From assembly GCA_900019385.1 (NCBI GenBank), contig FIZJ01000006.1, positions 94,593 through 158,592 on the forward strand: a stretch of DNA of 64,000 nucleotides. The letters are read 5' to 3'. Shown here piece by piece: positions 1-52,550 of this stretch. A program made the position numbers and the translations under genes. Each line of letters starts with the position of its first letter. The stretch's first letter is position 1. Origin of the DNA: an uncultured Clostridia bacterium (lineage in GTDB: Bacteria > Bacillota > Limnochordia > Darwinibacteriales > DTU012). A model generated the notes under the pieces. That model worked only from the letters and a program-made list of their open reading frames with translations, made no database searches and was not told the DNA's origin.

Positions 1-1813
1 CTCCACGCGGCTGATTCTGCTTCACGCCCACGCAGGTAATATAATCAAGGCATTCGGCCAATTTGTGGTAGGCGGAAACTATATCGTTGGATTTATCATT
101 TTCCTGATTCTGGTTGTTGTTCAGTTTATCGTGATCACCAAAGGCTCGGAACGGGTCGCGGAAGTTGCCGCAAGGTTCACTTTGGATGCAATGCCTGGAA
201 AGCAGATGAGTATCGACGCTGATCTCAACGCTGGTTTGATCACGGAGGCGGAAGCGAGGCAAAGGCGAAGGCAAATCCAAAGGGAAGCAGATTTCTACGG
301 CGCCATGGATGGTGCTTCGAAATTCATCAAAGGTGATGCCATTGCCGGCATTATCATCGTTCTGATTGACTTCATCGGCGGGTTATTGATTGGTATGTTC
401 GGCAGAGGTTTCGATTTTCAGCAGGCGCTTAATACCTATACGCTGCTGACAGTCGGCGACGGGCTGGTTTCCCAGATCCCGGCCCTTTTGGTCAGCACGG
501 CCACCGGTATCATTGTGACCAGAGCCGCCAGCGACAACAATCTCGGCCATGAATTGAACATACAGCTGATGAGCAGCCCAAAAACATTATTAGTTACCAG
601 TGCGGTGCTCATGGTTTTCGCCGTGGTCCCCGGATTGCCCTTCGTACCGTTTTTCGTTTTAAGCGGCCTGTTCGGTTTAATGGGATACGGTCTTTTACGG
701 GAGCAGGCAAGCACAGAGTCTACAGCCGCGGCGGACCATGCCCGTCAAGAGCTTGAAGAACGGCGGCAGCCGGAGAGCGTGCTGTCGCTGCTGCAGGTTG
801 ATATGATTGAACTTGAGATCGGCTACAGTTTGATACCACTGGTCGATTCGGAACAAGGCGGCGATATGCTTGATCGGATCACCATGATCAGGCGCCAGTG
901 CGCCTTGGAACTTGGCATTGTTGTGCCGGTCATCCGCATCCGCGACAATCTTCAGCTCCCGCCTAATTCGTATATAATCAAAATCAAAGGGATTGAAGTG
1001 GGGCGGGGGCAGTTGATGCCCAATCATTTTCTAGCGATGGATGCAGGAAATGTGACGGAGCGCGTTCCAGGTGAGCCCACAAAAGAACCGGCCTTTGGCC
1101 TTGATGCCCTATGGATTTCAGAGGAACATCGGGAGCAGGCAGAAATCAATGGGTATACGGTTGTTGATTCCCCAAGTGTCCTGGCCACCCATCTGACCGA
1201 AACGATCCGCAGCCACGCCCATGAGCTCCTTGGCCGTCAAGAGGTTCAGACGCTGCTTGACAGTCTTCGCAGCGATTATTCCGCTGTGATCAACGAGCTT
1301 GTGCCCAATCTGATGACAATAGGCGAAGTGCAGAAAGTCCTGCAAAATCTCTTGCGTGAGCAAGTCCCGATCCGGAATTTGGTGACGATACTGGAAGCCT
1401 TGGCTGACGCCGCGCCCATCAGCAAGGATTTGGATTACTTGACAGATTATGTCCGGGAGGCTTTGGCCCGCCAGCTTTGCCGCCAGTATGCGGATGATGA
1501 TCTACTGCAGGTATTGACTCTTGATCAGCAGTGGGAGACAGTGATTGCGGAAGGGATTGAGCAGACTGAACGGGGCAATATAGTGTCGATAGATCCCCGC
1601 CTTTTGCAGCGGCTGTTTAATGCTCTCAAGCAAACGCTCGACTCTACAGCTCTTGTCCAACCGGTCATTTTGGTGTCTCCCCGGATCAGACTTGCCTTGA
1701 AGCGCTTGACAGAAAGATATTTTCCCGGTCTGGCCGTTATGTCGTACAACGAGATTGCGCCTGAGATTCAGGTGCAGACCATAGGGATGGTGAAATGGCC
1801 GCATGAGGATTAA
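1..1813 (+). CDS. flhA: Flagellar biosynthesis protein FlhA, 5'-truncated at the window edge. The reading frame is open from position 2, and the translation STRLILLHAHAGNIIKAFGQFVVGGNYIVG matches the conserved FlhA TM/FHIPEP region.
   Basis: 582-aa ORF plus open frame back to nt 2. FHIPEP-family motifs GGNYIVG..ITKG.ERVAEVAARFTLDAMPGKQMSID are present, followed by the cytoplasmic FlhA-C domain. flhF follows directly. Confidence 0.93.
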   Translation, partial: STRLILLHAHAGNIIKAFGQFVVGGNYIVGFIIFLILVVVQFIVITKGSERVAEVAARFTLDAMPGKQMSIDADLNAGLITEAEARQRRRQIQREADFYGAMDGASKFIKGDAIAGIIIVLIDFIGGLLIGMFGRGFDFQQALNTYTLLTVGDGLVSQIPALLVSTATGIIVTRAASDNNLGHELNIQLMSSPKTLLVTSAVLMVFAVVPGLPFVPFFVLSGLFGLMGYGLLREQASTESTAAADHARQELEERRQPESVLSLLQVDMIELEIGYSLIPLVDSEQGGDMLDRITMIRRQCALELGIVVPVIRIRDNLQLPPNSYIIKIKGIEVGRGQLMPNHFLAMDAGNVTERVPGEPTKEPAFGLDALWISEEHREQAEINGYTVVDSPSVLATHLTETIRSHAHELLGRQEVQTLLDSLRSDYSAVINELVPNLMTIGEVQKVLQNLLREQVPIRNLVTILEALADAAPISKDLDYLTDYVREALARQLCRQYADDDLLQVLTLDQQWETVIAEGIEQTERGNIVSIDPRLLQRLFNALKQTLDSTALVQPVILVSPRIRLALKRLTERYFPGLAVMSYNEIAPEIQVQTIGMVKWPHED

Positions 1814-2846
1814 GAAATTCCGGGCGGAGACGCTGCCGGAAGCAGTATCCATGATGAAAGCGGAGTTCGGTGACGATGCTATTATCCTTCACACCATCAT
1901 TGTGAAAACGAGCCGCTTTTTCGGGTTGTTCGGCAAGAAGCAATATGAAGTGCTTGGTGCGGTTGATCCAAACCAAGAAAACAACAAGAAACCTCACCAC
2001 GTCACTGCCGGGCAGCAAGAACCACAACCAGCCGCCAACCAAGGGCTAGATTGGGGAACTGAAGATGGCAGCAGCGCGATTCAGTTTCTGTACCAACTGC
2101 TAGCTCGGCAAGAACTGTCCCAAACTCTTGCGGTGGATATCGTGAAGACTATTCTGCGGCAGGTTCCCAAACAGGAATGGAACGAAACGCCGCTGTTGAA
2201 AAGGATGCTCAGGGCAGAGATCAGCAGCCTCATCAGAGTGGATAAGCCCTGGGAGTTTGACGATGGGCAAAAAGTAGTGGCACTGGTGGGCCCGACAGGA
2301 GTGGGTAAAACTACGACCATTGCCAAGCTAGCGGCGAATTATCATCTGATCGCGAGGAAAAAAGTGGGTTTGATCACACTTGATACATACCGCATTGCAG
2401 CTGTGGAGCAGCTGAAAAAGTACGCCGATATCATGAATGTACCATTGACTGTAGTCTATTCCACCAACGGTGTATCCTCCGCTCTGGCTTCCTACACGGA
2501 TATGGATTTGGTCCTAATCGACACCTTCGGGTGCAGCCATCATAATCAGGAGCGGATGTCGGCGCTAAAATCAGCTTTTGAGAGTCTGGACATAGAGAAA
2601 TACCTGGTGGTCAGTGCCACCACAAAGAGTAACGACCTGATGGCGATTATTGATGCCTTTAAAGAGCTCGGCATCGACAATCTAATTGTCACCAAGCTGG
2701 ATGAGACACGCACATATGGAATTCTGGTGGAAGCGCCCAGTTATGCCCAAGTGCCAATCGCTTTTATCACAAATGGCCAAAGCGTACCCGACGACATCGA
2801 GATTGCTGAAAACGAACAGCTGACAAGCATGGTTTTGGAGGGCTAG
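1803..2846 (+). CDS. flhF: Flagellar biosynthesis SRP-type GTPase FlhF
   Basis: 347 aa. P-loop VALVGPTGVGKTTTIAKLA, and DTFG / TKLDET motifs typical of the FtsY/Ffh-like FlhF. The ATG overlaps the flhA stop. Confidence 0.9.
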   Translation: MRIKKFRAETLPEAVSMMKAEFGDDAIILHTIIVKTSRFFGLFGKKQYEVLGAVDPNQENNKKPHHVTAGQQEPQPAANQGLDWGTEDGSSAIQFLYQLLARQELSQTLAVDIVKTILRQVPKQEWNETPLLKRMLRAEISSLIRVDKPWEFDDGQKVVALVGPTGVGKTTTIAKLAANYHLIARKKVGLITLDTYRIAAVEQLKKYADIMNVPLTVVYSTNGVSSALASYTDMDLVLIDTFGCSHHNQERMSALKSAFESLDIEKYLVVSATTKSNDLMAIIDAFKELGIDNLIVTKLDETRTYGILVEAPSYAQVPIAFITNGQSVPDDIEIAENEQLTSMVLEG

Positions 2847-2848
2847 CG

Positions 2849-3709
2849 ATGACTGATCAAGCGCAGTTGCTGCGCAATCTGGTTAACCAAGATTCATGCA
2901 TCGTTCCCCGCACTATTGCTGTAACCAGTGGTAAAGGCGGTGTGGGTAAGACGAATATTGCCATCAATCTGGCGTTGACTTTGATAAAGCTTGAGCGCAA
3001 AGTTGCGCTTCTGGACGGCGATTTCGGCCTTGCCAACGCAGATCTGCTCTTGGGTGTGTATCCAAAATACACTCTGATGGATATTGTCAATGGCAAGCGC
3101 GAGTTAAGCGACATCATCGTCGAAGGCCCGCTTGGGCTGAAGGTGATTGCCGGCGGTTCAGGCGCCTATGAGCTTGCCAATTTAGGCCAAATGGGGCTGG
3201 ACCGCATGATTTCCGCAGCACTGCATATTGGCCAAGGACTGGACTTCTTGATTGTCGATACAAGTGCCGGTTTGGCCAGGAATGTGATCCGGGTGATCAT
3301 GGCGGTAAAAGAGGTCCTGGTGGTGGCGACTTCCGAACCGAGCAGCATCGCGGACGCCTATGGACTGATTAAGACCATTTTGCAGCGGGAGCCGGAGAAA
3401 GAGATAGTGATTATCGCCAACATGGTCCGTTCCCCTAACGAGGGACTCTTGGTCTGGCAGAAGATCAATCTGATGACAGCCAGATTCTTGCGGCGTGAGG
3501 TTAAATACGGCGGCAGTGTGCTTTTTGATCACAAGGTGGCTGCTGCAGTAAAAGCCCAGCAGGCCTTTATCCTTGCCTATCCGGGGTCAAGCGCCAGCCG
3601 ATCGATGCAGAATGTCGCTGAAAATGTCCTGAATAAAAACTATCTCAGCGCTGAGCCAATCACAGCAGGCAGAAATCTATCCTTTGGGAGGGATTCGTTT
3701 GCTACTTAG
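2849..3709 (+). CDS. flhG: MinD-family ATPase FlhG (YlxH), a flagellar number/placement regulator
   Basis: 286 aa. Deviant Walker A TSGKGGVGKTNIAINLA. Located directly after flhF. GGAGGG RBS 8 nt upstream. Confidence 0.88.
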   Translation: MTDQAQLLRNLVNQDSCIVPRTIAVTSGKGGVGKTNIAINLALTLIKLERKVALLDGDFGLANADLLLGVYPKYTLMDIVNGKRELSDIIVEGPLGLKVIAGGSGAYELANLGQMGLDRMISAALHIGQGLDFLIVDTSAGLARNVIRVIMAVKEVLVVATSEPSSIADAYGLIKTILQREPEKEIVIIANMVRSPNEGLLVWQKINLMTARFLRREVKYGGSVLFDHKVAAAVKAQQAFILAYPGSSASRSMQNVAENVLNKNYLSAEPITAGRNLSFGRDSFAT

Positions 3710-4331
3710 CCCTAACCAAAGAATCGAACTAATTCTCGGCGACGGTGAAGAACGGAGGGTGTTCATTACCCGGGTCGAAGACGTGAGCGAACTGGATAAT
3801 TACTTGCTGGTGGCTGCCCCCATCGTGAATGGAAATATTGTTCCCATCAGGCGGGAGACAGCGGTTACTGTCTCATTTTACTATCATGAGGTGCCGCACC
3901 AAGGACGGTATCAGGCCACCGGAACTGTTGATCGGCGTTTCCGGGAGAACAGCGTTCCCGTCTTGCTGGTGAAGTTGACGAGTGAATGGAAGAAAATTCA
4001 GCTAAGAGATTATGTCCGAGTCAGTGTGTTTATAGAAGGGTTGTACAACGGCACCAATCCATGTCTGATCAGAGATCTCAGCGGCGGGGGGCTGCTTTGC
4101 GCAGCCCAGGAAGAAATTGCCGTCGGTTCGAAGATTTATATCGATTTCCCGATCGATAAAACGCTATTGCGCGTGAACTGCAGAATTTTGAGGGTGGCCA
4201 AGACAGAACGGGGTTTCGAATACGGCTGCATCTTTGAGGATCTGGATGAGCGTACCCGACAGCAGATCATTCAGTACGTGTACAAACGCCAGATCGAGAT
4301 ATATCGGAAAGAGAGTAACCAAAAGGATTAG
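3699..4331 (+). CDS. PilZ-domain protein, a YcgR/MotI-like c-di-GMP flagellar brake candidate. The ORF opens at TTG 3684; the likelier start is TTG 3699, 5 nt after the GGGAGGGA RBS.
   Basis: About 210 aa. The N-terminal YcgR-like part is followed by a C-terminal PilZ-like region (..IYIDFP...RILRV...GFEYGCIFEDL). Sits between flhG and fliA. Confidence 0.6.
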   Translation: MLLSPNQRIELILGDGEERRVFITRVEDVSELDNYLLVAAPIVNGNIVPIRRETAVTVSFYYHEVPHQGRYQATGTVDRRFRENSVPVLLVKLTSEWKKIQLRDYVRVSVFIEGLYNGTNPCLIRDLSGGGLLCAAQEEIAVGSKIYIDFPIDKTLLRVNCRILRVAKTERGFEYGCIFEDLDERTRQQIIQYVYKRQIEIYRKESNQKD

Positions 4332-4344
4332 GAAGTTGGTTGGC

Positions 4345-5106
4345 ATGGACAGAGACAGCGTTGAGCTCACCGACTTGTGGCAGCAGTACAAATATAATAA
4401 TGATCTCACCGCACGTGAACAGATCATCGAGCAGTATCTGCCTTTGGTCCAATACATCGCGGGCAGAATCGCCATTCATCTTCCAGACAATGTCGAGTTT
4501 CATGACCTAATCAGCTACGGTGTCTTTGGCTTGATCGACGCTATTGACAAATATGACCCCCATCGGGATATTAAGTTTGAAACCTACGCCAGTGTACGCA
4601 TCCGCGGCGGGATCATAGACGGGCTTCGCTCAACTGACTGGATCCCGAGGAGTGTCCGCAGCAAAGCCAAAGAGATTGATCAGGCAATTATCAAGCTCGA
4701 GCACGACTTGGGCAGGACACCAACTGATCGGGAAGTGGCTGAAGAGCTGGAAATGTCGTTGGACAAATACTATGAAACCCTGGATCAAGTGCGGAATATT
4801 TCGCTTTTGTCACTTGACGACAACTTGAGCAGCGATGCGGACAGTGATTCAATCACATTGTTGGATACGATCAATGATCCTGAAGCTGTTGTCGATCAAG
4901 AATTGGTTGACCGGGAGACACTGCAGGAACTGGCCGCCGCCATCGACGAGCTTGACGAGAAACAGCGTTTGGTTGTGTCTCTGTACTACCATGAAGGTCT
5001 TACCCTCAGAGAAATCGGGCACATCATGGCTGTATCTGAATCGCGCATCAGCCAAATACACAGCCAGGCCATAAGGACACTCCGCACCAAGCTTAAATGG
5101 GTTTAA
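4345..5106 (+). CDS. fliA: Flagellar sigma factor FliA/SigD (sigma-28). The ORF opens at 4234; the likelier start is ATG 4345, after an AGGAAG RBS.
   Basis: Sigma-70 family regions 2, 3 and 4 are present (YLPLVQYIAGRI, DLISYGVFGLIDAIDKYD, LTLREIGHIMAVSESRISQIHSQA). Position after flhF-flhG, as in Bacillus/Clostridia. Confidence 0.88.
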   Translation: MDRDSVELTDLWQQYKYNNDLTAREQIIEQYLPLVQYIAGRIAIHLPDNVEFHDLISYGVFGLIDAIDKYDPHRDIKFETYASVRIRGGIIDGLRSTDWIPRSVRSKAKEIDQAIIKLEHDLGRTPTDREVAEELEMSLDKYYETLDQVRNISLLSLDDNLSSDADSDSITLLDTINDPEAVVDQELVDRETLQELAAAIDELDEKQRLVVSLYYHEGLTLREIGHIMAVSESRISQIHSQAIRTLRTKLKWV

Positions 5107-14879: not shown

Positions 14880-14894
14880 GAGGATGTGATCACA

Positions 14895-16607
14895 ATGCGA
14901 GCCAGTTCACTATATGCGCCGACATTGAGGGAAATCCCGGCGGAAGCGGAACTGATCAGCCACCAATATATGCTCCGCGCTGGGCTGATGCGGAAATCCG
15001 CCGCTGGAGTCTATTCATATTTGCCTCTTGGAGTAAGAGTTCTGCACAAAATCATGGCCATCATCCGGGAAGAACTTGACCGGGCGGGAGGCCAGGAGAT
15101 TCTCCTGCCGATAGTGCAGCCGGCAGAGCTGTGGCATGAATCTGGGCGCTGGAATGATTACGGACCAGAAATGTTCCGGCTTGTTGACCGCCACCAGCGG
15201 CAGTTTTGCCTCGGCCCAACACATGAGGAGATTATCACCGCGCTGGTGCGTGACGAAGTCCGCTCTTACAAGCAGCTGCCGCTTAGATTGTACCAGATTC
15301 AGAACAAATACCGAGACGAGATCAGGCCTCGCTTTGGCGTGATCCGCAGCCGCGAGTTCATTATGAAGGATCTTTACTCTTTCGACCGCGACGAGGCCGG
15401 GGCACAGGAGAGTTACAGGGCGATGTACGATGCCTACACACGCATCTTCGCCCGCTGCGGCTTGAAAACACACCCTGTCGAGGCGGATACAGGAGCTATC
15501 GGCGGTGATCAATCCCACGAGTTCATGGTCCTCGGCGATGCTGGAGAGGCTTTGATTGTGTTTTGCCCCTCCTGCGGATATGCCGCCAATGTGGAACGGG
15601 CCGAGTGCGCGCCTTACGAACCAGCAGTATCCAGTACGCCGCTGTGCGCCATGGAAGAAATACCCACACCGGGTACCACAACTGTTGAAGAGTTGACTCG
15701 GCTTCTGCAGGTTGAACCAAGCCAAATCATCAAGACTATGATCTACATTGCCGATGGCCAACCTGTGGCGGTTTTGACGAGCGGCGCCCACGATGTGAAC
15801 GAGGTCAAGCTGAAAAGAGCTTTAATGTGCGATCAGCTGGAACTGGCCAACCACGAAATCATTGCGGAAGTCACGAACGCCCCGGTTGGATTCGCCGGGC
15901 CGGTGGGCCTTGACGTACCGATCTTCGCAGACTATTCAGTTGTGCCGATCGTTAATGGCATATCGGGCGCAAACAAGAAAGACTATCACTTGCGGAATGT
16001 GAACATCAATCGTGATTACATACCTACCAAGATTCTCGACCTGCGGGAAGCTAGAGCCGGCGAAAAGTGTGTCCGCTGCGGCAAGGCGCTTGATGAAGCC
16101 CGGGGAACCGAAGTGGGTCAAGTGTTTTACCTGGGTACGAAGTATTCGAAGCCGATGCAGGCCCGCTTCCTGGATCAAGACGGTGTGGAAAAACCTTTTG
16201 TCATGGGGTGTTACGGCATCGGTGTCAGCCGGACTGTGGCGGCGATTATTGAACAGCACCATGACGAAGACGGCATTTGCTGGCCGGTCAGTGTGGCGCC
16301 GTTCAGCGTTATTGTTGTTCCCGTAAGCTACAAAGATGAAGCGCAGCGCAATGCAGCAGATCAGGTGTATTATGAACTGGAAAATGCCGGAATCGAGGTC
16401 ATCCTTGACGATCGGGACGAAAGGCCCGGAGTGAAGTTCAAAGACGCGGATCTGATCGGTTATCCACTGCGGGTGACGATTGGTCCAAAGCATTTGGCGG
16501 ACGGTAATGTGGAGATAAAGACCCGTCGAACCAAGGAAGTATCCGTGGTTCCCATGGCGGATGTGGTAGACCAAGTCAAGGCATTACTCAACCGGTTAGG
16601 AGAATGA
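14895..16607 (+). CDS. proS: Proline-tRNA ligase (bacterial type with editing domain). The alternative GTG 14886 lies too close to the GGAGGA RBS.
   Basis: Class II aaRS motifs. The 570-aa size includes an INS editing domain. No T-box leader, since ispG abuts it. Confidence 0.93.
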
Positions 16608-16609
16608 AA

Positions 16610-17236
16610 ATGAAAATTGCTGCCATTGTACCGGCCTACAATGAAGAATCCACCATCGGATCTGTCATCTCGGCGTTGAAATCTTCTCCTCTTATTGATG
16701 AAATCATTGTTGTCAGCGACGGTTCATGGGATCGAACAGCCGAAATAGCCCATGAGCTGGGAGTGACCGTTGTTGAGCTGGAACAGAACATGGGCAAGGG
16801 TGGCGCCATGTACACTGGTACCTGCCATACCGACGCGGATGTGTTTCTGTTTGTGGATGCGGATCTGGTTGGTTTGAACCGGCATCATGTAGCCAGCTTG
16901 CTGAACCCGATTATCAACAACAGGGCGGAGATGACCGTCGGTGTCTTCGAAAAAGGCAGGCTGATGACGGATCTGGCTCAAAGAATCACCCCGTTCTTGT
17001 CCGGACAGCGAGCCATGACCAGGAAACTGTTTGAGCAGATACCAGATCTGAAAAGCCGGGGATATGGAGTGGAGATGGCTCTATCGCTTTATGTGAGCAA
17101 GCACCACTGTCAAGTGGAGATGGTGCATCTGCCGAACCTGAGCCAGGTGATGAAAGAGGAAAAGCGTGGTTTTTGGAAGGGCCTCAGGCAGCGGTTGAGG
17201 ATGTTCTGGGAGATCTTGCGAGCTGTCAAGCTCTAG
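16610..17236 (+). CDS. Family-2 glycosyltransferase, small and single-domain, inserted between proS and polC. ATG 16604 is an alternative start.
   Basis: IVPAYNEESTIGSV..., DxD-like VDADLV. GT-A fold signature. Confidence 0.7.
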   Translation: MKIAAIVPAYNEESTIGSVISALKSSPLIDEIIVVSDGSWDRTAEIAHELGVTVVELEQNMGKGGAMYTGTCHTDADVFLFVDADLVGLNRHHVASLLNPIINNRAEMTVGVFEKGRLMTDLAQRITPFLSGQRAMTRKLFEQIPDLKSRGYGVEMALSLYVSKHHCQVEMVHLPNLSQVMKEEKRGFWKGLRQRLRMFWEILRAVKL

Positions 17237-17258: not shown

Positions 17259-20200
17259 TTGGGTTCAGTTTATGTGATTAAGCCCGAGAACGGCCAATTT
17301 TTATCCCAGCTGTCGCCAGATCCGATCCTAGAAAATGTGAAGATAGTGCAAATCGATGTTGATTCGGCCAATCAATGCTGGACAGTATGGCTGGAGGGAG
17401 AAAAACGAGGTACTGAGGAATTCTGGGATCAGCTGGCAGCTCAGCTGTGTGCCGCCGTTGGCACCATCGATAAAGTGACGTTCGCATGGAAAGGGAATCA
17501 ACAGCATACTGAAGATGAAATCAGCTACATGCATTCGGTGATCAAAAACTTCAACCCTACTGCAGGCAGCCGCGAGGAGAAGCAGAAAAATCCCAAAGCG
17601 AAGCGAAAGAAAGGGCGGCGTAAGGAGCAGCCGATCAACACTGAGCATGTTCCAATCGCTTCGATCGATGTGGAACAGAATGACGTAGTCATAGCAGGGG
17701 AGGTTGTCGCCGTCGACAAGCGTACCTTGCGCACAGGCAGAATCCTTGTGACTTTTGATGTGTGGGATCATACAGACACCATCACCTGCAAATTGTTTCT
17801 CGAGCTTGACGAAGAAGTGCCACCCATCACAGTGGGCGAGTGGCTCAAGGTGAAAGGCAATGTTCAGTTCCAAAGCTACGAGCAGGAACTGGCCCTAACT
17901 GTCCAGCAGTTTAACCGGATTCCGCCCCCTCCTCCTGTGGAGGACCAGGCCCCACAGAAGCGAGTGGAGCTTCATTTGCATACCAAAATGAGCGGGCTGG
18001 ACGGTGTCACCGATGTTGAGGAAGTAGTGAGGCAGGCTGCATTATGGGGCCATCCTGCGGTGGCCATTACTGATCACGGTGTAGTCCAAGCCTTTCCCGC
18101 AGCCTGCGCCGCAGGGAAAAAACACGGGATCAAGATTATCTACGGACTTGAAGGATACTTAATCGACAACGACACGGACCGGCCTCATCATATTGTCATT
18201 CTGGCGAAGAATAAAACCGGCCTGAAAAATCTGTATAAGCTTGTTTCCTATTCGCACTTGCATCACTTTTACCGCCGTCCCCGGATTCCCAGGAAGCTGC
18301 TGATTGATCACAGAGAAGGGTTAATCCTGGGATCCGCCTGCGAGCAGGGTGAAGTATTCCAGGCGTGCCTGAGGAAGGATCCACGCCTGAAAGAGATTGC
18401 CCGTTTCTATGATTATCTGGAGATCCAACCTTTGGGCAACAACGAATTCTTGATTGGGACAAGCCTGGTCAGTTCCCTTGAAGATCTGCAGGAGATAAAC
18501 CGCACAATCTGCGAGGTCGGACAGGAACTCGGCCTTCCAGTGGTGGCCACGGGTGACGTGCACTTCTTGCGTCCGGAAGACGGTGTTTACCGCACAATTC
18601 TCTTGCAGGGGCAGGGGTTTGAGGACGTAGAGCGCCCTGCGCCGCTGTATTTTCGCACTACAGACGAAATGCTGGGCGAGTTCAAGTATCTCGGAGAAGA
18701 GCTTGCCCGGAAGGTTGTAATCACTGATCCCAACAAGATTGCCAGCCAAATTGAGGAACTGGTGCCGATACCGCAAGGACTGCACGCTCCTAAGATTCCC
18801 GCCGCAGCCGAACAGCTCCAGGAAGTGTGCTACAAAACAGCAAGGGAACTATACGGCGATCCCCTTCCAGATTTGGTTGCCAGGCGCCTGGAAAAAGAAC
18901 TCAAAGCGATTATCGGCAACGGATATGCAGCATTGTACTGGACCGCCAGGCAGTTGGTGCTAAAGTCCAATTCCGACGGATACATGGTGGGGTCCCGCGG
19001 ATCGGTTGGGTCATCGTTTGTGGCAACAATGAGCGGCATAACCGAAGTGAACCCGCTACCGCCCCACTATATATGCCCAAAATGTCATTGGCATAAGTTC
19101 TTTACCGGTGAGGAAGTCGGCGCAGGCATTGATTTGCCCAAGAAGGACTGCCCACGCTGCGGTACTGAGCTGCACCGGGACGGTTTCGACATTCCATTCG
19201 AAGTTTTCCTGGGATTTGATGGTGACAAAGTCCCAGATATTGATCTTAATTTCAGCGGAGAATACCAGGCGACGATTCAAAAATACACCGAGGAACTGTT
19301 CGGCGCTGACTATGTGTTCCGTGCGGGTACAATTGGAACTTTGGCGGAAAAAACCGCTTACGGTTTTGTAAAAAACTACTTGGAAGAAACCGGTCAAGTG
19401 AAGCGAAGAGCAGAAATCAACCGCATGCTGAAAAAGCTGGTGGGGGTTAAACGCACGACCGGGCAGCATCCTGGAGGTATGATCGTAGTCCCGAAAGATA
19501 TGGAGATATTCGATTTCACACCGATCCAATATCCTGCCAACGATCCCAAGAGTGGAATTGTCACGACCCATTTTGAATTCAGCTACATTCACGACAGTCT
19601 GGTAAAGCTTGACAATCTCGGCCACAAAGGGCCGACAATGATGCGGTTGTTTGAAGAGTTTAGCGGCATTCGGGTAGACGATATTCCCATGGATGATCCA
19701 GCGACAATGGCGGTTTTTTGTGGGCTTGAGTCTCTTGGAGTGACAGAAGAGCAGATAGGCACATCCATCGGAACTTTAGGTGTTCCAGAGTTCGGAACTG
19801 ACTTTACCCGCCAAGTGCTTGAGGATATCCTGCCTACCACTTTTGCCGATCTTGTGGCCATCATGGGGCTCACTCACGGTACCGATGTCTGGTTGAACAA
19901 TGCCCAGAACCTGATTAGGGAAAAGGTAACAGATTTTAAGAATGTCATCGCGTGTCGAGACGACATCATGACATATTTGATGCACCGAGGCTTGTCCGCC
20001 AGCGACGCATTCCGCATTATGGAACGGGTGCGCAAAGGCCAAGGGCTTTCCGAGGCAGACATCACCCTGATGAAGAAGCATCAGGTTCCCGATTGGTACA
20101 TCGAGTCCTGTTTCAAGATCAAATACATGTTCCCAAAAGCCCATGCTGTGGCCTACGCGATTACGGCTTACAGGGCCGCATATTTCAAAGTGCACAAGCC

Positions 20201-20657
20201 GGCGGCTTTTTACGCAACATTTCTTAGTGTTGAAATCGAGCACGTCAACGCCGACATAATCGTTGCCGGGGTTGAGCGTGTCAAGGCTGAAATAGCCGCT
20301 TTGGAGGCCAAAGGGACAGAAGCCACCGCCAAAGACGCAGACGTGATCACAGTCCTAAAGACAGTGCTGGAAGCTATGGCGCGCGGCATCAAGTTCTTGC
20401 CCGTCGATTTATACCATTCAGACGCGACTAGGGTGATTCCACAGGGAAACGGCCTGCTGTTGCCGCTTGTTTCATTGGAAGGTGTGGGGCTAAACGCTGC
20501 CAATGCCATTGTGGAAGCCCGCCAGGAAGGTGAATTCTTGTCGATCGAAGATCTCCGCCAGCGGACCAAAATCAGCAGAACAGTGATTGATGCTCTTTCC
20601 AGGCACAACTGTCTGGCTGGAATGCCCGAAACCAATCAGTTGAGCCTGTTTGGTTGA
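17259..20657 (+). CDS. polC: PolC-type DNA polymerase III alpha subunit, but only 1132 aa, with no 3'-5' exonuclease insertion and a short N-terminal domain (see findings)
   Basis: TTG start after a GAGGAGGAG RBS. Shows OB domain, PHP (HLHTKMSGLDGV...ITDHGVVQAFP), the PolC zinc finger CPKCHWHKF...CPRCG, the pol core (GSRGSVGSSFVATM, FDFTPIQYP) and a C-terminal HhH. The canonical proS-polC-rimP locus. Confidence 0.9.
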   Translation: MGSVYVIKPENGQFLSQLSPDPILENVKIVQIDVDSANQCWTVWLEGEKRGTEEFWDQLAAQLCAAVGTIDKVTFAWKGNQQHTEDEISYMHSVIKNFNPTAGSREEKQKNPKAKRKKGRRKEQPINTEHVPIASIDVEQNDVVIAGEVVAVDKRTLRTGRILVTFDVWDHTDTITCKLFLELDEEVPPITVGEWLKVKGNVQFQSYEQELALTVQQFNRIPPPPPVEDQAPQKRVELHLHTKMSGLDGVTDVEEVVRQAALWGHPAVAITDHGVVQAFPAACAAGKKHGIKIIYGLEGYLIDNDTDRPHHIVILAKNKTGLKNLYKLVSYSHLHHFYRRPRIPRKLLIDHREGLILGSACEQGEVFQACLRKDPRLKEIARFYDYLEIQPLGNNEFLIGTSLVSSLEDLQEINRTICEVGQELGLPVVATGDVHFLRPEDGVYRTILLQGQGFEDVERPAPLYFRTTDEMLGEFKYLGEELARKVVITDPNKIASQIEELVPIPQGLHAPKIPAAAEQLQEVCYKTARELYGDPLPDLVARRLEKELKAIIGNGYAALYWTARQLVLKSNSDGYMVGSRGSVGSSFVATMSGITEVNPLPPHYICPKCHWHKFFTGEEVGAGIDLPKKDCPRCGTELHRDGFDIPFEVFLGFDGDKVPDIDLNFSGEYQATIQKYTEELFGADYVFRAGTIGTLAEKTAYGFVKNYLEETGQVKRRAEINRMLKKLVGVKRTTGQHPGGMIVVPKDMEIFDFTPIQYPANDPKSGIVTTHFEFSYIHDSLVKLDNLGHKGPTMMRLFEEFSGIRVDDIPMDDPATMAVFCGLESLGVTEEQIGTSIGTLGVPEFGTDFTRQVLEDILPTTFADLVAIMGLTHGTDVWLNNAQNLIREKVTDFKNVIACRDDIMTYLMHRGLSASDAFRIMERVRKGQGLSEADITLMKKHQVPDWYIESCFKIKYMFPKAHAVAYAITAYRAAYFKVHKPAAFYATFLSVEIEHVNADIIVAGVERVKAEIAALEAKGTEATAKDADVITVLKTVLEAMARGIKFLPVDLYHSDATRVIPQGNGLLLPLVSLEGVGLNAANAIVEARQEGEFLSIEDLRQRTKISRTVIDALSRHNCLAGMPETNQLSLFG

Positions 20658-20874: not shown

Positions 20875-21336
20875 ATGAAAAAAAGCGAGATTATTACACT
20901 GGCGGCAAACCTTGCAGAGCAAGCCACAGCCGGAACAGAAATCGATTTAGTCGACGTCGAATATGTAAAGGAATCGGGCAGGTACTTTTTGCGGGTGTAT
21001 ATCGACAAGCCGGGCGGCATCACAGTCGATGACTGCCATCAGGTCCATGTCCGCTTGGATGAGCTTCTTGATCAAGCAGATCCTATTGATCACCCATACG
21101 TACTGGAAGTTTCTTCTCCAGGGCTGGACCGCCCTTTGAAGAAGCCTGCGGATTTTGTCAGGAACATAGGCAGGCGGATCAGTGTCAGGACGTATCAACC
21201 GCTTGACGGCCAGAAGCAATTTGTGGGAAGGCTGACCGCGGTTGAAAACGGTATAGTCAGGCTGGATCTCGGTGCGGGCGAGATCGAGGTTCCACAGGAC
21301 CAAATAGCCAAAGCGCGCTTAGTTGTGGATTTTTGA
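20875..21336 (+). CDS. rimP: Ribosome maturation factor RimP
   Basis: 153 aa, RimP/YlxS-family pattern, AGGAGAG RBS, and position before nusA. Confidence 0.9.
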   Translation: MKKSEIITLAANLAEQATAGTEIDLVDVEYVKESGRYFLRVYIDKPGGITVDDCHQVHVRLDELLDQADPIDHPYVLEVSSPGLDRPLKKPADFVRNIGRRISVRTYQPLDGQKQFVGRLTAVENGIVRLDLGAGEIEVPQDQIAKARLVVDF

Positions 21337-21355
21337 TATGGGAGGCAGGTTGAAG

Positions 21356-22864
21356 ATGAATCAGGAGCTGATTGGGGCACTCAACGAACTGGAAAAGGAG
21401 AGGGGGATCTCTAAGGAAATCCTTGTCGAAGCAATTGAAACGGCGATTGTTTCCGCATACAAGCGCAACTTCAGTTTGAGCTCCGCCGCAAGCGTAAGAG
21501 TCGACTTAGACCAGAACACCGGGGAGATCCATGTGTATTCACGGCGGAGGGTGGTTGATAAAGTCAGCGATCCTAAACTGGAGATTGCATTGGAAGAAGC
21601 CCAGGCCATTGATCCCAATTATGAAATTGGAGATGTTGTCGAAGAAGAAGTGACTCCCCACGACTTCGGGAGGATTGCGGCCCAAACAGCGAAGCAGGTA
21701 GTGATTCAAAGAATCCGCGAAGCTGAGCGTTCAATTGTCTACAATGAATATGCCAACCGTGCCGGAGATGTGGTCAACGGGATCGTCCAGCGCACAGACC
21801 ACCGCAATGTGATTGTGGATTTGGGCAAGGTAGAAGCGGTTTTGCCGCTTGGAGAGCAAATCCCCACTGAAAAATACCACCCGAACCAAAGAATGAAATT
21901 CTATATCAACGAAGTAAAGCAAAGCAGCAGAGGGCCGCAGGTCTTTCTGTCCCGCACTCATCCTGGGCTGTTGAAGTACTTGTTCGAGTTGGAGGTTCCT
22001 GAAATCCAATCTGGCGTTGTGGAAATCAAGGCAGTCGCCAGAGAAGCTGGATACCGGTCCAAAATCGCAGTGTTCAGCCGTGATGAGAACGTAGATCCCG
22101 TTGGCGCGTGCGTCGGCAACCGAGGGCTCAGAGTTCAGGCAGTAGTGTCCCAGCTCAATGGAGAAAAGATCGATATCATCGCCTGGGTGCCTGATCAGGC
22201 GGCCTTCATTGCCAATGCCCTAAGTCCGGCCGCGGTTACAAAAGTGTATCTCGACCGGACGGGCAAGTCAGCCTATGTAGTTGTTCCCGACGATCAGCTG
22301 TCCCTGGCCATCGGAAAAGAAGGCCAGAATGCGCGGCTAGCCGCCCGATTGACCGGATGCAAAATTGATATCAAGAGCGAATCACAAGCGGAAGCAGAGC
22401 CATTTGTGGAGCCGGAACTCGAAGAGAATGATGAAGCCGCCGATTCAGCCGTTCCCGAACCTGAGCAGACACTTGCCCTAGAGGTGCAGTCTGATAAGGC
22501 TGAAGCAGAAGTCAAGCCCCAGAAGCAGGACGAAGACGAATCCCAAAGTGACAGTGTCGAAGCTGTGGAGCAAGAACCTGCCAAGACGAAGCGCCGGACG
22601 AAACCGGCTGCCGAAAAGCACAAAGAAAGCGAGCAGAAGCCCATAGAGGATGTGGCTGCTTTGCTGGCCAAGCTCGGCACTCCCAGCAAACGTAAGAGCT
22701 GGGAAGAGAGATTTGGCTCCATCAATGCCGATGCCGAAGCGAAAGAAACGGAGCAGGAGGAGCAGCAGGCTAAAAAGTCCAAGAAAAAGAAAAAGGCGGA
22801 GAAGGTAATCAAAGATTTCTCAATGCTGACCATGGAAGACTTCCAGTTCGATGAACAGGAGTAA
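21356..22864 (+). CDS. nusA: Transcription termination/antitermination factor NusA with an approximately 160-aa low-complexity charged C-terminal extension. The ORF opens at 21323; ATG 21356 matches the NusA N-terminus.
   Basis: NTD, S1, KH1 and KH2 (..LAIGKEGQNARLAARLTGCKIDIKS) are followed by an E/K/A/Q-rich tail. Confidence 0.92.
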   Translation: MNQELIGALNELEKERGISKEILVEAIETAIVSAYKRNFSLSSAASVRVDLDQNTGEIHVYSRRRVVDKVSDPKLEIALEEAQAIDPNYEIGDVVEEEVTPHDFGRIAAQTAKQVVIQRIREAERSIVYNEYANRAGDVVNGIVQRTDHRNVIVDLGKVEAVLPLGEQIPTEKYHPNQRMKFYINEVKQSSRGPQVFLSRTHPGLLKYLFELEVPEIQSGVVEIKAVAREAGYRSKIAVFSRDENVDPVGACVGNRGLRVQAVVSQLNGEKIDIIAWVPDQAAFIANALSPAAVTKVYLDRTGKSAYVVVPDDQLSLAIGKEGQNARLAARLTGCKIDIKSESQAEAEPFVEPELEENDEAADSAVPEPEQTLALEVQSDKAEAEVKPQKQDEDESQSDSVEAVEQEPAKTKRRTKPAAEKHKESEQKPIEDVAALLAKLGTPSKRKSWEERFGSINADAEAKETEQEEQQAKKSKKKKKAEKVIKDFSMLTMEDFQFDEQE

Positions 22865-37393: not shown

Positions 37394-38578
37394 GTGCGAT
37401 ATCCCATGCTTGTACGTTTAGCGGCGGTTGCATTGATCACCGCTGTTTGTTCTTTTGTCTGCGCCGCCGCTGAACTCGACCTGTCGGCCAAAGCGGCGCT
37501 TTTGATGGAAGCACACAGCGGCCGAATCCTGTATGCCGAAAATATAGACGAACCGCTGCCGGTAGCCAGCATTTCCAAACTTATGACTCTGATCCTGGTC
37601 CTGGAAGCGGTTGATACAGGCATGATAGCTCTCAACGATCTGGTTACGGCCAGTGAATACGCAGCTTCTATGGGTGGATCGCAGGTTTGGTTGGAAAAAG
37701 GTGAACAGCTGACGCTTGAGGAACTGCTGTACGCCGTGGCGGTGGGCAGCGGCAATGATGCTTCAGTGGCGGTTGCCGAATACCTGGCTGGCTCAGAATC
37801 GGCGTTTGTCGCACTCATGAACCAAAAGGCAGCAGAACTGGGTTTGACCAACACCGAGTACAGCAATGCCAGCGGGCTGCCTCCAAGTCTTCTAGGAAGC
37901 TCGGGTCGTCAGGTGATGAGCGCCCGGGACGTGGCGGTGCTTTGCCGGTATGCGCTGAACGTGCCGCGGCTGCTTGATTTTGTCTCCACATACGAATACA
38001 CAATGCGGGCGGATACCACCCGTAAACCGGTGCTTTGGAACTATAACAAACTCCTGCGCCGCTATCAAGGGGTTGACGGCTTCAAAACCGGGTATACAAC
38101 AGAAGCTGGTCACTGTATAGCAGCCACAGCCGTGCGGGGAGGCCTGCGCCTGATAGCGGTCGTGCTCGGCAGTACCAGCGAAGCGGCCAGAGAGAGTGAT
38201 GTGACCAAACTTTTGGATCTTGGGTTTAGGGAATACACATACCACTTGATCCATCCCCAGGGGACGGTTGTAGGTGAAATAGTGGTTCCAAAAGGTGATC
38301 CCGAAACTGTCAAGCTCATTGTCGGCCAAGATTTCTACGCTCCGGTAAAAAGGGGCGAACAGGATCAGATCAAGATCAGCATCGAGGTTGATGAGCGGCT
38401 TCAGGTTCCCATTTCGCAAGAAACAACCATCGGTGCCATCTCAGCGTATCTGGGAGAACTGTTGTTAGGTAAGGCCGATATCAAACCTGAACAAAGCGTT
38501 GCCCGCAGCTCAGTTTTCAAGCTCATGACGCGGATAACCAGACAAATGATCCGCAGTTTGACCGAAGGAAGCTTGTGA
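37394..38578 (+). CDS. dacF: D-alanyl-D-alanine carboxypeptidase (S11, PBP5 type), DacF-like
   Basis: Signal peptide, SISKLM (SxxK), SGN, and KTG motifs. Immediately upstream of spoIIAA, as with B. subtilis dacF. Confidence 0.9.
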   Translation: MRYPMLVRLAAVALITAVCSFVCAAAELDLSAKAALLMEAHSGRILYAENIDEPLPVASISKLMTLILVLEAVDTGMIALNDLVTASEYAASMGGSQVWLEKGEQLTLEELLYAVAVGSGNDASVAVAEYLAGSESAFVALMNQKAAELGLTNTEYSNASGLPPSLLGSSGRQVMSARDVAVLCRYALNVPRLLDFVSTYEYTMRADTTRKPVLWNYNKLLRRYQGVDGFKTGYTTEAGHCIAATAVRGGLRLIAVVLGSTSEAARESDVTKLLDLGFREYTYHLIHPQGTVVGEIVVPKGDPETVKLIVGQDFYAPVKRGEQDQIKISIEVDERLQVPISQETTIGAISAYLGELLLGKADIKPEQSVARSSVFKLMTRITRQMIRSLTEGSL

Positions 38579-38596
38579 AGCTTCCTTTCGTTTTAT
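38563..38596 (+). terminator. Intrinsic terminator overlapping the dacF stop
   Basis: cGAAGGAAGCTT-gtg-AAGCTTCCTTtcg followed by TTTT. Confidence 0.55.
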
Positions 38597-38602
38597 GCCG
38601 GG

Positions 38603-38629
38603 CAGGAATTTGACTTGCCGAGATGAATA
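38603..38629 (+). promoter_or_regulatory. Candidate sigma-H-type promoter for the spoIIA operon
   Basis: AGGAATT (38604-38610), 11 nt, then gatGAAT (38622-38628). Matches the sigH consensus RNAGGAWWW-N11-12-RNNGAAT. By analogy with the B. subtilis spoIIA promoter. Confidence 0.35.
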
Positions 38630-38682
38630 TCTACAAAATAGTCAACTTTATGAAAATGCAATCGAAGAGGGGAGGAGCGAGC

Positions 38683-39015
38683 TTGCTGTCGGCGGAAACG
38701 GTTAACCAAGCTCTGATTGTTACCCTTGAGGGCGAGTTGGACTTGCATACGGCACCGCCTTTCAAACAGTGCATCGACAGCCATCTGGCGAAGAACTTGG
38801 CACTGAAAGACCTTGTCCTGAAGATGGACAAGATCAATTTCATTGACAGTTCAGGTTTGGGTGTTATTCTGGGGCGTTACAAACTAATTCAAAAACGTGG
38901 CGGGAAGCTCATCTTCGTAGCCTGCAACCCCCAGGTTCACCGCATCCTCAAGCTTTCGGGCATGCAAAAGATTGCTTACTTTGCTGATTCAGTCAAGGAA
39001 GCCTTATCTTTATGA
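38683..39015 (+). CDS. spoIIAA: Anti-sigma F factor antagonist SpoIIAA (STAS domain). The ORF opens at 38623; the likely start is TTG 38683 after a GAGGGGAGGAG RBS, giving 110 aa.
   Basis: ..LIVTLEGELDLHTA...DSSGLGVILGRYK.. aligns with B. subtilis SpoIIAA, including the phospho-serine motif. Confidence 0.9.
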   Translation: MLSAETVNQALIVTLEGELDLHTAPPFKQCIDSHLAKNLALKDLVLKMDKINFIDSSGLGVILGRYKLIQKRGGKLIFVACNPQVHRILKLSGMQKIAYFADSVKEALSL

Positions 39016-39031
39016 TTAGGGAGGAGTAAGA

Positions 39032-39463
39032 ATGGAAGTTAAGAACTGGGTTAGACTGGAGTTCCCAAGTGAATCGGTGAACGTTTTGTTCGCCCGGACT
39101 GCGGTTGCCGTGTTTGCTTCCCAACTGGACATGACTCTGGAAGAGATTGAAGATATCAAGGTTGCGGTTTCTGAAGCAGTTTCCAACTGCGTCATCCATG
39201 CTTACCGAAACACTTCCGGCAATATCGTTCTCGAATGCCGGTATTCCCTGGAAGAACTGGAAATATCAGTAGAGGATTTCGGCTGCGGCATTCCGGACAT
39301 TGTTCAGGCGGCGGAGGCCGGGTATACGACGGTTCCCGAGGAAAGAATGGGCTTGGGGTTGGTATTCATTCATGAACTCATGGATCACGTGAATATTGCT
39401 TCGGAAGTGGGAAAAGGCACCAAGGTAATCATGACCAAGAACATCCCCCAAAACAGAGGATAG
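39032..39463 (+). CDS. spoIIAB: Anti-sigma F factor SpoIIAB (GHKL serine kinase)
   Basis: 143 aa, N-box ..EAVSNCVIHAY.., and G-box GLGL. Confidence 0.92.
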   Translation: MEVKNWVRLEFPSESVNVLFARTAVAVFASQLDMTLEEIEDIKVAVSEAVSNCVIHAYRNTSGNIVLECRYSLEELEISVEDFGCGIPDIVQAAEAGYTTVPEERMGLGLVFIHELMDHVNIASEVGKGTKVIMTKNIPQNRG

Positions 39464-39465
39464 GT

Positions 39466-40227
39466 GTGAAAATGAGCAATCTGACAATCAGCTTTCACGA
39501 CTATCCTATCCTGCCTGATCATGAAGTGCGCAGGCTGCTGAAGGAAGCCCAATCCGGCAGCGATGCAGCAAGGCAGAAATTGGTGGAATGCAACCTACGC
39601 CTGGTAAGAAGCATAGTGATGAGGTTCGCCCACCGGGATGCGGAAATGGACGATTTGTTTCAAATAGGGTGTATCGGCCTGATCAAGGCGATTGACGATT
39701 TCGATCTCAGTTATGATGTCAAGTTTTCCACTTACGCGGTACCGAAAATAATAGGAGAAATCAAACGTTATCTAAGGGAAGCGTCGCCAATGAAAATATC
39801 ACGTTCACTGCGGGAACTGGCCAGCCGAGCCTTGGCTGTCAAGGACAATCTTGCCAGCGAACTGGGCCGTCCGCCGCTGATTGGTGAAATTGCCGGTGAA
39901 CTGGGCGTTTCAAAGGAAGAGTTGATTGCGGCGCTGGAGGCGGTTGCCCCTGTAATGTCACTGCAGCAGGTAATCCTGGAGGATGAAGGGGAAGGTGTAA
40001 GACTTGAGGCTCAGATAGGCAGCGAACCGGACGGTGACGCACTTTACCTGAAAGATGTTTTGCAAAGCCTGGAACCGGATGAGCGGCGACTGCTTTTACT
40101 CCGCTATTTTGCGGAACAAAGCCAGGTGGAAGTGGCTAAAATTTTTGGTGTTTCCCAGGCGCACATATCGCGGATCGAAAAACGAATCCTGAACGAGCTA
40201 CGAAACAAACTTGAGACGAAGGGATGA
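39466..40227 (+). CDS. sigF: Sporulation sigma factor SigF
   Basis: Sigma-70 regions 2-4. ..RLVRSIVMRF.., DLFQIGCIGLIKAIDDFD, and an HTH in region 4. Confidence 0.92.
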   Translation: MKMSNLTISFHDYPILPDHEVRRLLKEAQSGSDAARQKLVECNLRLVRSIVMRFAHRDAEMDDLFQIGCIGLIKAIDDFDLSYDVKFSTYAVPKIIGEIKRYLREASPMKISRSLRELASRALAVKDNLASELGRPPLIGEIAGELGVSKEELIAALEAVAPVMSLQQVILEDEGEGVRLEAQIGSEPDGDALYLKDVLQSLEPDERRLLLLRYFAEQSQVEVAKIFGVSQAHISRIEKRILNELRNKLETKG

Positions 40228-41718: not shown

Positions 41719-41746
41719 GCAAGCTGGGAATGCAGCTTGTTTTCTT
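41719..41746 (+). terminator. Intrinsic terminator after the GNAT gene
   Basis: CAAGCTG-ggaatg-CAGCTTG followed by TTTTCTT. Confidence 0.55.
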
Positions 41747-41891
41747 AATTTCTGCCGCCAATATTCCGGTATGTACCTCGAATGATTTAATTGTAACGAT
41801 AGCGAGGATTTTGTGGGATGAACAAGGATTTACGGCAATTGTGTCGAACACGTTCATTGTTAGTCCTGTAGACGATAATGGAGGGGTAGTA

Positions 41892-42910: not shown

Positions 42911-42926
42911 TTAAAAGGTGGATTTT

Positions 42927-43967: not shown

Positions 43968-43986
43968 CGAAGGGGGAGTGGATGCT

Positions 43987-46023: not shown

Positions 46024-46042
46024 TGTTAAGGGAGGAAACTTG

Positions 46043-47406: not shown

Positions 47407-47517
47407 TCCATATCCAGGTTATGACTTTCAAGTCCTTGCAGGGAAATATTGGATAATAATCGAATTATGAAGTACTTTGACAGACTACCTCAGTATTTCC
47501 GAAAGGAGTTTCCGTCC

Positions 47518-48042: not shown

Positions 48043-48071
48043 AAAAAGTATAGGAGTGAGGTGAGGCAAAG

Positions 48072-49046: not shown

Positions 49047-49050
49047 AAAA

Positions 49051-52539: not shown

Positions 52540-52550
52540 GAGGTCTTACT

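Follow-up and report, generated by a model that had tools for sequence, protein, structure and literature searches.

The window analyzed here, a 64,000-nucleotide stretch of contig FIZJ01000006.1, carries on its forward strand (positions 17259 to 20657) a gene for a PolC-type α-subunit of DNA polymerase III that lacks the DEDDh-type 3′-5′ exonuclease domain. Judged by its sequence, this open reading frame (ORF) is almost certainly the genuine and functional polC gene of an uncultivated Firmicute in the class Limnochordia, with the exonuclease-less architecture NTD-OB-PHP-Pol3-HhH (NTD, N-terminal domain; HhH, helix-hairpin-helix). The explanation that best covers the observations, and that we consider reasonably probable, is that this PolC is functional without the exonuclease, that the domain was lost secondarily, and that proofreading would be provided by the PHP domain with MutS standing behind it.

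17259–20657 (+): polC, 1132 amino acids, exonuclease-less PolC-type DNA polymerase III alpha subunit (NF001688, TIGR01405, Pfam, 3f2b)
17268–17549 (+): N-terminal subdomain I, residues 4–97 (hhalign, model)
17550–17648 (+): K/R-rich disordered linker, residues 98–130, at the place of NTD subdomain II (model confidence, sequence)
17685–17912 (+): OB fold, residues 143–218 (PF01336, E = 8e-9)
17967–18578 (+): PHP domain, residues 237–440 (PF02811, E = 6.6e-37, unbroken over 237–383; model confidence 84–98)
18153–18188 (+): junction, residues 299–310 (MAFFT, model, 3f2b alignment)
18813–20042 (+): polymerase core (palm, thumb, fingers), residues 519–928 (PF07733, DNA_pol3_alpha, 519–704, E = 1.8e-55; PF17657, finger, 803–928, E = 1.2e-23)
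19074–19160 (+): zinc finger C606-x2-C609 ... C631-x2-C634 (four invariant cysteines)
20385–20627 (+): tandem HhH, residues 1043–1123 (PF14579, HHH_6, E = 3.4e-14)
20637–20651 (+): β-clamp-binding motif QLSLF, residues 1127–1131 (sequence)

The exonuclease is missing at the PHP insertion point

The reading frame was open over 1132 codons from a TTG start, with AGGAGG 5–7 nt upstream. The product scored 1483.3 bits against NF001688 (cut-off 873; above the equivalog threshold) and 1355.4 bits against TIGR01405 (cut-off 1043). The NF001688 match was split into two stretches, the better of which began at residue 307 of the query, immediately past the junction, and at position 612 of the profile. 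Among PDB sequences, 3f2b matched best, in a single stretch spanning residues 134–1131. The OB fold was found on the N-terminal side of PHP (PF01336 at 143–218, PHP from 237); in DnaE, it lies C-terminal to PHP. An AlphaFold2 model built on a 49-sequence alignment (mean predicted local distance difference test, pLDDT, 85.7; predicted template modeling score 0.73) superimposed on 3f2b_A with a target-normalized template modeling score of 0.94, a root-mean-square deviation of 2.7 Å and 52% identity.

For comparison within the family, the window PolC was aligned (MAFFT) with 116 full-length homologues. The catalytic residues D660, D662, and D785 were invariant in all 117 sequences, as were the zinc-finger cysteines C606, C609, C631, and C634. 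The C terminus consists of the clamp-binding motif QLSLF and a last glycine; a motif of the form Q-L/I/M-S/T/A-L-F closed almost all homologues, at the location described for the PolC clamp motif (PMC3919608). An earlier note on this DNA had held that the OB fold, the PHP metal ligands, the zinc finger, the polymerase core, and the HhH region are all intact, which Pfam and the 117-sequence alignment confirmed.

In the window PolC, 12 residues separate E298 from H311, both of them PHP ligands, compared with 212–213 in the three exonuclease-containing PolCs of the alignment, P0088, P0108, and P0120; thus, ∼200 amino acids are missing at this site. The whole DEDDh insertion is gone, leaving “YLID” on one flank and “RP.H” on the other. 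RNase_T (PF00929) did not match the window PolC even at E ≤ 1; the positive controls P0088 and P0120 matched it at 4e-45 and 4e-43, respectively. A hidden Markov model (HMM) made from three PolC exonuclease domains and run with filters off against all stop-to-stop translations of the six frames of the 64 kb found nothing (best E = 6), and the motifs Exo I (DxE), Exo II (D), and Exo III (HxxxxD) were absent from the PolC ORF and from the six window frames. A hidden or frameshifted exonuclease was therefore rejected: the six frames hold neither a frameshifted remnant nor a stand-alone DnaQ-like gene that this HMM detects. The earlier note, which had quoted a peptide contained in this ORF, had claimed that the insertion is precisely lacking, that the junction falls within 18120–18215, and that no DEDDh motifs are left. 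All of this held, the codons from E298 (18150–18152) to H311 (18189–18191) lying inside the given range. In the AlphaFold2 model, the junction forms a strand (292–302), a tight turn and a second strand (310–316) at pLDDT 91–98, and the PHP barrel is predicted to close across it without strain.

A second domain loss near the N terminus

The same note had put the N-terminal region ∼100 residues short of the canonical one, and this, too, proved correct. Residues 7–97 corresponded to positions 5–107 of the canonical PolC N-terminal subdomain I when the N-termini of the clade were compared by hhalign (probability 95.6%, E = 1.1e-8; the PF14480 region of the template in this comparison is 17–83). 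Pfam applied to residues 1–147 alone gave no NTD match, that is, subdomain I was seen only by profile–profile comparison. Its model shows the order strand-helix-helix-strand-strand-helix-strand plus a terminal helix (pLDDT 71–89). Subdomain II (PF11490), in contrast, is replaced by the K/R-rich linker REEKQKNPKAKRKKGRRKEQ (residues 98–130), and this region is predicted to be disordered (pLDDT < 50 at 80–87, 89–94, and 96–119). Canonical PolCs have ∼100 extra residues there, with PF11490, and relatives of the window PolC carry N/G/R-rich basic linkers at the same place, for example, NGNGNGNGTRRRRKRR. Because its basic character is conserved despite sequence turnover, the linker may have a function such as binding DNA or a partner. 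Most other exonuclease-less lineages keep ∼317–355 residues before the PHP domain, versus 238 in the window PolC; exonuclease loss and loss of NTD subdomain II are, thus, generally uncoupled, and the latter is a separate event common to the clade of the window. Overall, these results support the structural reading of the earlier note in nearly every particular.

The PHP metal site and the state of the exonuclease

All nine PHP ligands, which the earlier note had proposed to check, are present in the window PolC (H239, H241, D248, H273, E298, H311, C361, D433, and H435, i.e., HHDHEHCDH). Eight of them were invariant in the 117 aligned sequences, and D433 was aspartate in 116 and asparagine in one exonuclease-containing PolC. 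The nonamer agrees with the definition of an “active” PHP domain, HHDHEH(C/H)DH, given in a recent survey (PMC12926913).

The relation between the two sites was then scored more widely. A library of 50%-identity representatives searched with the window PolC yielded 2822 proteins at E ≤ 1e-30, of which 134 full-length representatives were scored together with 15 earlier matches; one truncated PHP region was unscorable, leaving 148 PolCs. The exonuclease was called absent when the insert comprised 90 residues or less.

Exonuclease absent: PHP site 9/9 in 34, fewer than nine ligands in 1
Exonuclease insert present, DEDDh degenerate: PHP site 9/9 in 12, fewer than nine ligands in 0
DEDDh intact: PHP site 9/9 in 58, fewer than nine ligands in 43

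Hence, the PHP site was complete in 46 of the 47 PolCs whose exonuclease is missing or degenerate, versus 58 of the 101 with an intact one (Fisher’s exact test, absent versus intact, p = 4e-6). The 12 PolCs that have an insert of 142–291 residues but have lost DEDDh residues (P0140, P0143, P0148, P0152, P0169, P0175, P0189, P0190, P0199, P0200, P0226, and P0260) all have a 9/9 PHP site. Their inserts apparently are decaying exonuclease domains, although in individual cases an alignment error is possible. The only exonuclease-less PolC of the 35 scored whose PHP site is destroyed (HRSLENSDQ) is P0234, a representative of 1178 residues, which may come from a mobile element or represent an additional, accessory PolC. 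The pattern as a whole, a PHP site that is nearly always intact when DnaQ is lost or degenerate and often degenerate when DnaQ is intact, argues that at least one proofreading site in cis must stay.

Proposed proofreading without the DnaQ domain

Under the proposed mechanism, the DnaQ-type DEDDh domain would have been lost secondarily while polymerization stayed normal, as in the ΔExo PolCs of Geobacillus kaustophilus and Staphylococcus aureus. The 3′-5′ proofreading would be performed in cis by the PHP metal center, as in Mycobacterium tuberculosis DnaE1 and Thermus Pol III, perhaps assisted by the PHP domain of a co-resident DnaE1, and MutS-dependent mismatch repair would follow. We consider proofreading in cis by the PHP center the most likely mechanism and lean toward it by a modest degree. 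PHP-based exonucleolytic proofreading has reportedly been established for M. tuberculosis DnaE1 (by Rock and co-workers in 2015 and Banos-Mateos and co-workers in 2017) and for the Thermus Pol III α-subunit (by Stano and co-workers in 2006). Engineered ΔExo PolCs are fast polymerases (Sau-PolC-ΔN-ΔExo of S. aureus has a kpol of 330 per s; Lahiri et al, 2013, PMC3656037), so the loss of the exonuclease need not impair synthesis. In Clostridium thermocellum, which has PolC and DnaE1, a single change of a PHP ligand of PolC, C669Y, resulted in a mutator (∼30-fold); C669 is the cysteine ligand equivalent to C361 of the window PolC. This suggests that the PHP metal site of PolC is important to fidelity in vivo and that much of the genome is copied by PolC in such organisms. 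As for the last step, a complete mutS is present in the window (60971–63595, +; 874 amino acids, all five MutS domains, PF01624, PF05188, PF05192, PF05190, and PF00488), and post-replicative mismatch repair is thus encoded.

Several points weigh against assigning proofreading to the PHP domain. To our knowledge, PHP exonuclease activity has been demonstrated biochemically for no PolC. The one indirect sign of it is the C669Y mutator of C. thermocellum, which might equally stem from structural destabilization of the enzyme instead of lost catalysis. The Fisher test was made without phylogenetic correction on representatives ranked by their similarity to a query that itself has a 9/9 site. A complete PHP site is also common in exonuclease-containing clostridial PolCs (58/101), which means that it is not specific to the exonuclease-less ones, and P0234, which has neither site, indicates that one lineage or element, at the least, can do without both. 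More tentative than proofreading in cis as such is the further proposal that, in this lineage, a PolC-type replicase is proofread by the PHP trinuclear center alone, and that the enzyme, with no DEDDh domain, no NTD subdomain II and 1132 residues, is a natural minimal PolC.

The strongest competing explanation is that the exonuclease was relocated, not lost, and that a separate DnaQ- or ε-like DEDDh protein docked on PolC or the clamp proofreads in trans, as the separate ε-subunit of Escherichia coli does. Stand-alone DnaQ homologues are abundant (on average, more than three per bacterial proteome), and DnaE3 of Bacillus subtilis is complemented in trans by PolC's DnaQ domain, a result cited there (both according to PMC12926913). 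However, no frame of the 64-kb window contains a DEDDh-like sequence, and the identical PolC neighborhood on four contigs from other metagenomes (see below) contains no exonuclease gene. Moreover, no mode of ε binding is known for PolC, and the near-invariance of the PHP ligands in exonuclease-less PolCs (34/35) is what would be expected if the PHP domain does the job. Judged from this 64-kb stretch of the genome, proofreading in trans is, hence, considered unlikely. Pfam, applied to most ORFs of at least 150 codons in the window, recognized no second C-family polymerase and no dnaQ. The only other PHP-family protein of the window, a stand-alone protein of 275 amino acids (40224–41051, +), resembles RNase AM/3′,5′-nucleoside bisphosphate phosphatases (NF041577, 179 bits; NF047791, 168 bits; both below the cut-offs) and was rejected as a candidate proofreader.

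Somewhat less probable still is that the window PolC lacks proofreading altogether and is a secondary polymerase: a co-resident DnaE1 with an active PHP domain would be the main synthesizer, leaving to PolC a specialized or lower-fidelity role, or the lineage would simply put up with a higher mutation rate. Such a role was raised by Timinskas et al for genomes with PolC and DnaE1, in which all their exonuclease-less PolCs occur, and some Clostridia have DnaE1 only (PMC3919608); Thermaerobacter marianensis is likewise listed as DnaE1-only in the supplementary table of the 2026 survey (PMC12926913). P0234, having lost both sites, would fit as well. Against this stands the strict conservation of the catalytic, zinc-finger, clamp-motif, and PHP residues over a clade spanning 51–100% identity, a pattern that speaks for an enzyme at work on the clamp and under strong purifying selection. 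Both MutS and the conserved replicase locus are kept, and the ∼30-fold mutator of C. thermocellum implies that PolC synthesizes a large share of the genome in that organism.

If proofreading by the PHP domain alone is correct, the long-suspected PHP exonuclease of PolC could be measured in the Limnochordia enzyme without interference from a DnaQ domain; an exonuclease-less PolC that occurs in nature and whose PHP site is perfect makes a clean reagent with which to address this question. The division of labor and the fidelity in replisomes with PolC and DnaE1 (Clostridia, Negativicutes, and evidently Limnochordia) are experimentally almost unexplored.

Origin of the exonuclease-less state

In a neighbor-joining tree (865 columns), the exonuclease-less PolCs fell into 19 separate groups, corresponding to 17 parsimony changes. 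The group of the window was uniformly exonuclease-less and included P0116 (Syntrophothermus), with a linker of 30 residues at the junction, and P0114, with a low-complexity linker of 84 residues. As exonuclease-less PolCs are scattered among exonuclease-containing ones, and as intermediates exist (degenerate inserts, relic linkers), the sequences make a secondary deletion likely. The DnaQ domain would then have been lost repeatedly, by decay and deletion, in PolC lineages with an intact PHP site. Alternatively, a deep-branching lineage might have preserved the ancestral form of PolC that predates the insertion of DnaQ into the PHP domain. The junction is indeed very clean (12–14 residues) and uniform over the clade, and the tree, which is rough, was rooted by midpoint only. 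These points speak for the ancestral reading; from so rough a tree, nothing beyond multiple losses, as a qualitative result, is concluded. Yet, the polyphyly in the tree, the relic linkers of P0116 and P0114 inside the clade of the window itself, and the decaying inserts of the 12 representatives elsewhere all argue against an ancestral state, and the nearest exonuclease-containing PolCs (∼57–59% identity over the shared parts) match the window PolC as well as many exonuclease-less ones do. The ancestral origin is, consequently, regarded as very unlikely. If the PHP center does proofread alone in this lineage, the repeated, independent loss or decay of DnaQ in PolCs of which 46 of 47 keep a 9/9 PHP site would imply that proofreading by the PHP domain is both older and primary in Firmicutes with PolC and DnaE1, and that DnaQ is a dispensable add-on.

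The architecture is lineage-wide

A nearly identical protein, P0001, differs from the window PolC only by K549N and by the start residue (L in P0001). It is present on nine contigs, and the four that were inspected stem from four separate metagenomes of the JGI, each encoding 1132 amino acids with the same junction and the same neighbors. Among the 116 full-length homologues (51–100% identity), 113 lacked PF00929 and had a junction of 12–84 residues, mostly 12–16; they were 1109–1330 amino acids long, only one of them having 1235 or more, and those that are named belong to metagenome-assembled genomes (MAGs) of Limnochordia, Limnochordales, or Firmicutes. Across NCBI, ENA, JGI, and Logan assemblies, the same junction was seen in over 100 clusters of homologues. 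The four closest GTDB species representatives (67–85% identity), the “Bacillota bacterium” MAGs AS21ysBPME_219, AS15tlH2ME_94, AS20ysBPTH_50, and AS08sgBPME_46, gave no exonuclease match in their PolCs either.

An assembly deletion of ∼600 bp, which the earlier note had named as the finding that could overturn its claim, or a decaying pseudogene can be dismissed with near certainty, considering the same length and junction in four separate metagenomes, the conservation over the clusters and GTDB representatives, the 1132 open codons with every functional motif, and the lack of an exonuclease remnant in any frame. Nothing in favor of such an artifact emerged, although the window probably derives from a metagenome. 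For annotation, this means that a PolC of ∼1130 residues in such MAGs is complete, neither truncated nor misassembled.

About 22 more exonuclease-less PolCs were found in GTDB representatives, namely, MAGs of gut Acutalibacteraceae and Ruminococcaceae. At several GTDB loci (L010–L013, L075, and L076), a Firmicute-type PolC appeared under the titles Bacteroidaceae, Muribaculaceae, Paludibacteraceae, and Bacteroides uniformis (“cleanbin” assemblies); these bins are probably mislabeled or contaminated.

Gene neighborhood and the rest of the window

14886–16607 (+): proS, prolyl-tRNA synthetase (PF00587, PF04073, PF03129)
16604–17236 (+): GT2-family glycosyltransferase gene (PF00535, E = 1.3e-24; in all four independent contigs)
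20875–22864 (+): rimP and nusA (PF02576/PF17384, PF08529/PF13184)

The gene order resembles that of Bacillus: flhA-flhF-flhG-pilZ-sigD, rpsB-tsf-pyrH-frr-uppS-(cdsA), an AI-2E transporter gene, dxr-rseP-ispG-proS, the GT2 gene, and polC, followed by rimP-nusA-(ylxR-L7Ae)-infB-(rbfA)-nrnA-like-(truB-ribF-rpsO-pnp), where names in parentheses are gene calls on the near-identical metagenome contigs. Thus, polC is at its canonical locus, with one extra gene between it and proS, and presumably encodes the essential replicase. The earlier note had described the locus as an invariant proS-polC-rimP-nusA; the conserved neighborhood stands, but the GT2 gene separates proS from polC. This gene overlaps the stop of proS by 4 nt and is an odd passenger among translation and replication genes; the NCBIfam models that it matches best (glucosyl-3-phosphoglycerate synthase, AglJ-like) score far below their cut-offs. 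A scan of the whole window (1–64000, both strands) at Rfam gathering thresholds gave no matches, neither a T-box leader ahead of proS nor another recognized leader or riboswitch.

Flagellar and chemotaxis genes occur in two blocks ∼42 kb apart, both on the forward strand (65–5106 and 47449–57459), the first comprising flhA-flhF-flhG-pilZ-sigD, the second cheW-fliM-fliY-cheA-cheC-cheD-cheB-cheR-FapA. Between them lie the string from rpsB through polC to pnp and a set of sporulation genes. The latter (37394–40227, +) consist of a dacF-like D-Ala-D-Ala carboxypeptidase gene, two small ORFs (38623–39015 and 39032–39463), and a sigma factor gene of the SigF/SigG family (39466–40227), whose stop is overlapped by the start of the gene for the PHP-family protein mentioned above. 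The order equals the dacF-spoIIAA-spoIIAB-sigF arrangement of Bacillus, the small ORFs being placed by position alone, and suggests an endospore former. Further downstream (41730–43967, +), a MotA/ExbB-family protein, a 134-residue ORF at the position of ExbD, and a protein that carries a TonB C-terminal domain constitute a Ton-like system, which fits an outer membrane-bearing (diderm) Firmicute such as Limnochordia. It is followed by genes for a 700-residue protein with CARDB/cohesin domains (43921–46023) and for a 441-residue protein without a Pfam match (46023–47348).

Comparison with known systems

Exonuclease-less PolCs were already described in 2014, when 6% of PolCs were found to lack the Exo insertion, always in genomes with DnaE1 (Timinskas, Balvociute, Timinskas & Venclovas 2014, NAR 42:1393, PMC3919608). 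In that survey, they were restricted to Clostridia and Negativicutes, plus one extra copy in Thermotogae; the architecture NTD-OB-PHP-POL3-HHH2 was assigned to 12 genomes, each with DnaE1 (Table S2), and Clostridia and Negativicutes were shown to pair PolC with DnaE1, not with DnaE3 (PMC3919608). By this rule, DnaE1, not DnaE3, is presumably also the partner of the window PolC. According to a 2026 survey from the same laboratory (PMC12926913), Clostridia as a rule have three candidates for proofreading, of which PolC contributes two, its PHP and DnaQ domains, and DnaE1 one, its PHP domain. A DnaE-type subunit was present in every bacterial genome examined, as stated in both surveys (PMC3919608; PMC12926913). 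Limnochorda pilosa is among the genomes listed in the 2026 survey; the literature searched contained no paper joining Limnochorda and PolC. What is new here is, thus, not the architecture but the lineage, a class not named in 2014, and the extra loss of NTD subdomain II.

The closest described counterparts are the exonuclease-less PolCs of Acidaminococcus fermentans (YP_003399045.1; 1191 amino acids, PHP HHDHEHCDH, 9/9, in a genome of type PC+E1; Table S1 of PMC3919608) and A. intestini (YP_004896958.1; 1210 amino acids; PMC3919608). They share with the window PolC the order NTD-OB-PHP-Pol3-HhH without the Exo insertion, the nine PHP ligands, the clamp motif at the extreme C terminus (QIELF in Acidaminococcus, QLSLF in the window), and a similar N-terminal opening, “Y.I.P...FLS.L”. 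They differ in taxon, the window PolC belonging to Limnochordia-type MAGs and the 2014 examples to Clostridia and Negativicutes, and in length, the window PolC being 60–80 residues shorter because NTD subdomain II is missing as well. Canonical PolCs (those of B. subtilis, S. aureus, and Enterococcus faecium, 9QPC; ∼1430–1470 amino acids) are orthologous over OB, PHP, Pol3, zinc finger, and HhH and have in common with the window the neighborhood proS ... polC-rimP-nusA-infB, but the window PolC is without their ∼200-residue DEDDh exonuclease and their ∼100-residue NTD subdomain II. M. tuberculosis DnaE1 and the Thermus Pol III α-subunit resemble the window PolC in that they combine the lack of an integral DEDDh domain with the full nine-residue trinuclear PHP site; they are of the DnaE1 type, whereas the window enzyme is of the PolC type, and PHP exonuclease activity is known from them but from no PolC.

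The nearest structural counterpart was made by engineering. The construct crystallized in 3F2B is a ΔN-ΔExo version of G. kaustophilus PolC, and the structures of Gka-PolC-ΔN-ΔExo (PDB 3F2B, 3F2C, and 3F2D) were reportedly presented by Evans and co-workers in 2008. The PHP halves are joined at the same point in this construct and in the window PolC, the natural NDTDRP standing opposite the artificial GSGSG linker. The window PolC keeps N-terminal subdomain I, which the ΔN-ΔExo constructs of G. kaustophilus and S. aureus do not, and whereas these are laboratory deletions of exonuclease-bearing enzymes, the form found in the window is natural and fixed in its lineage.

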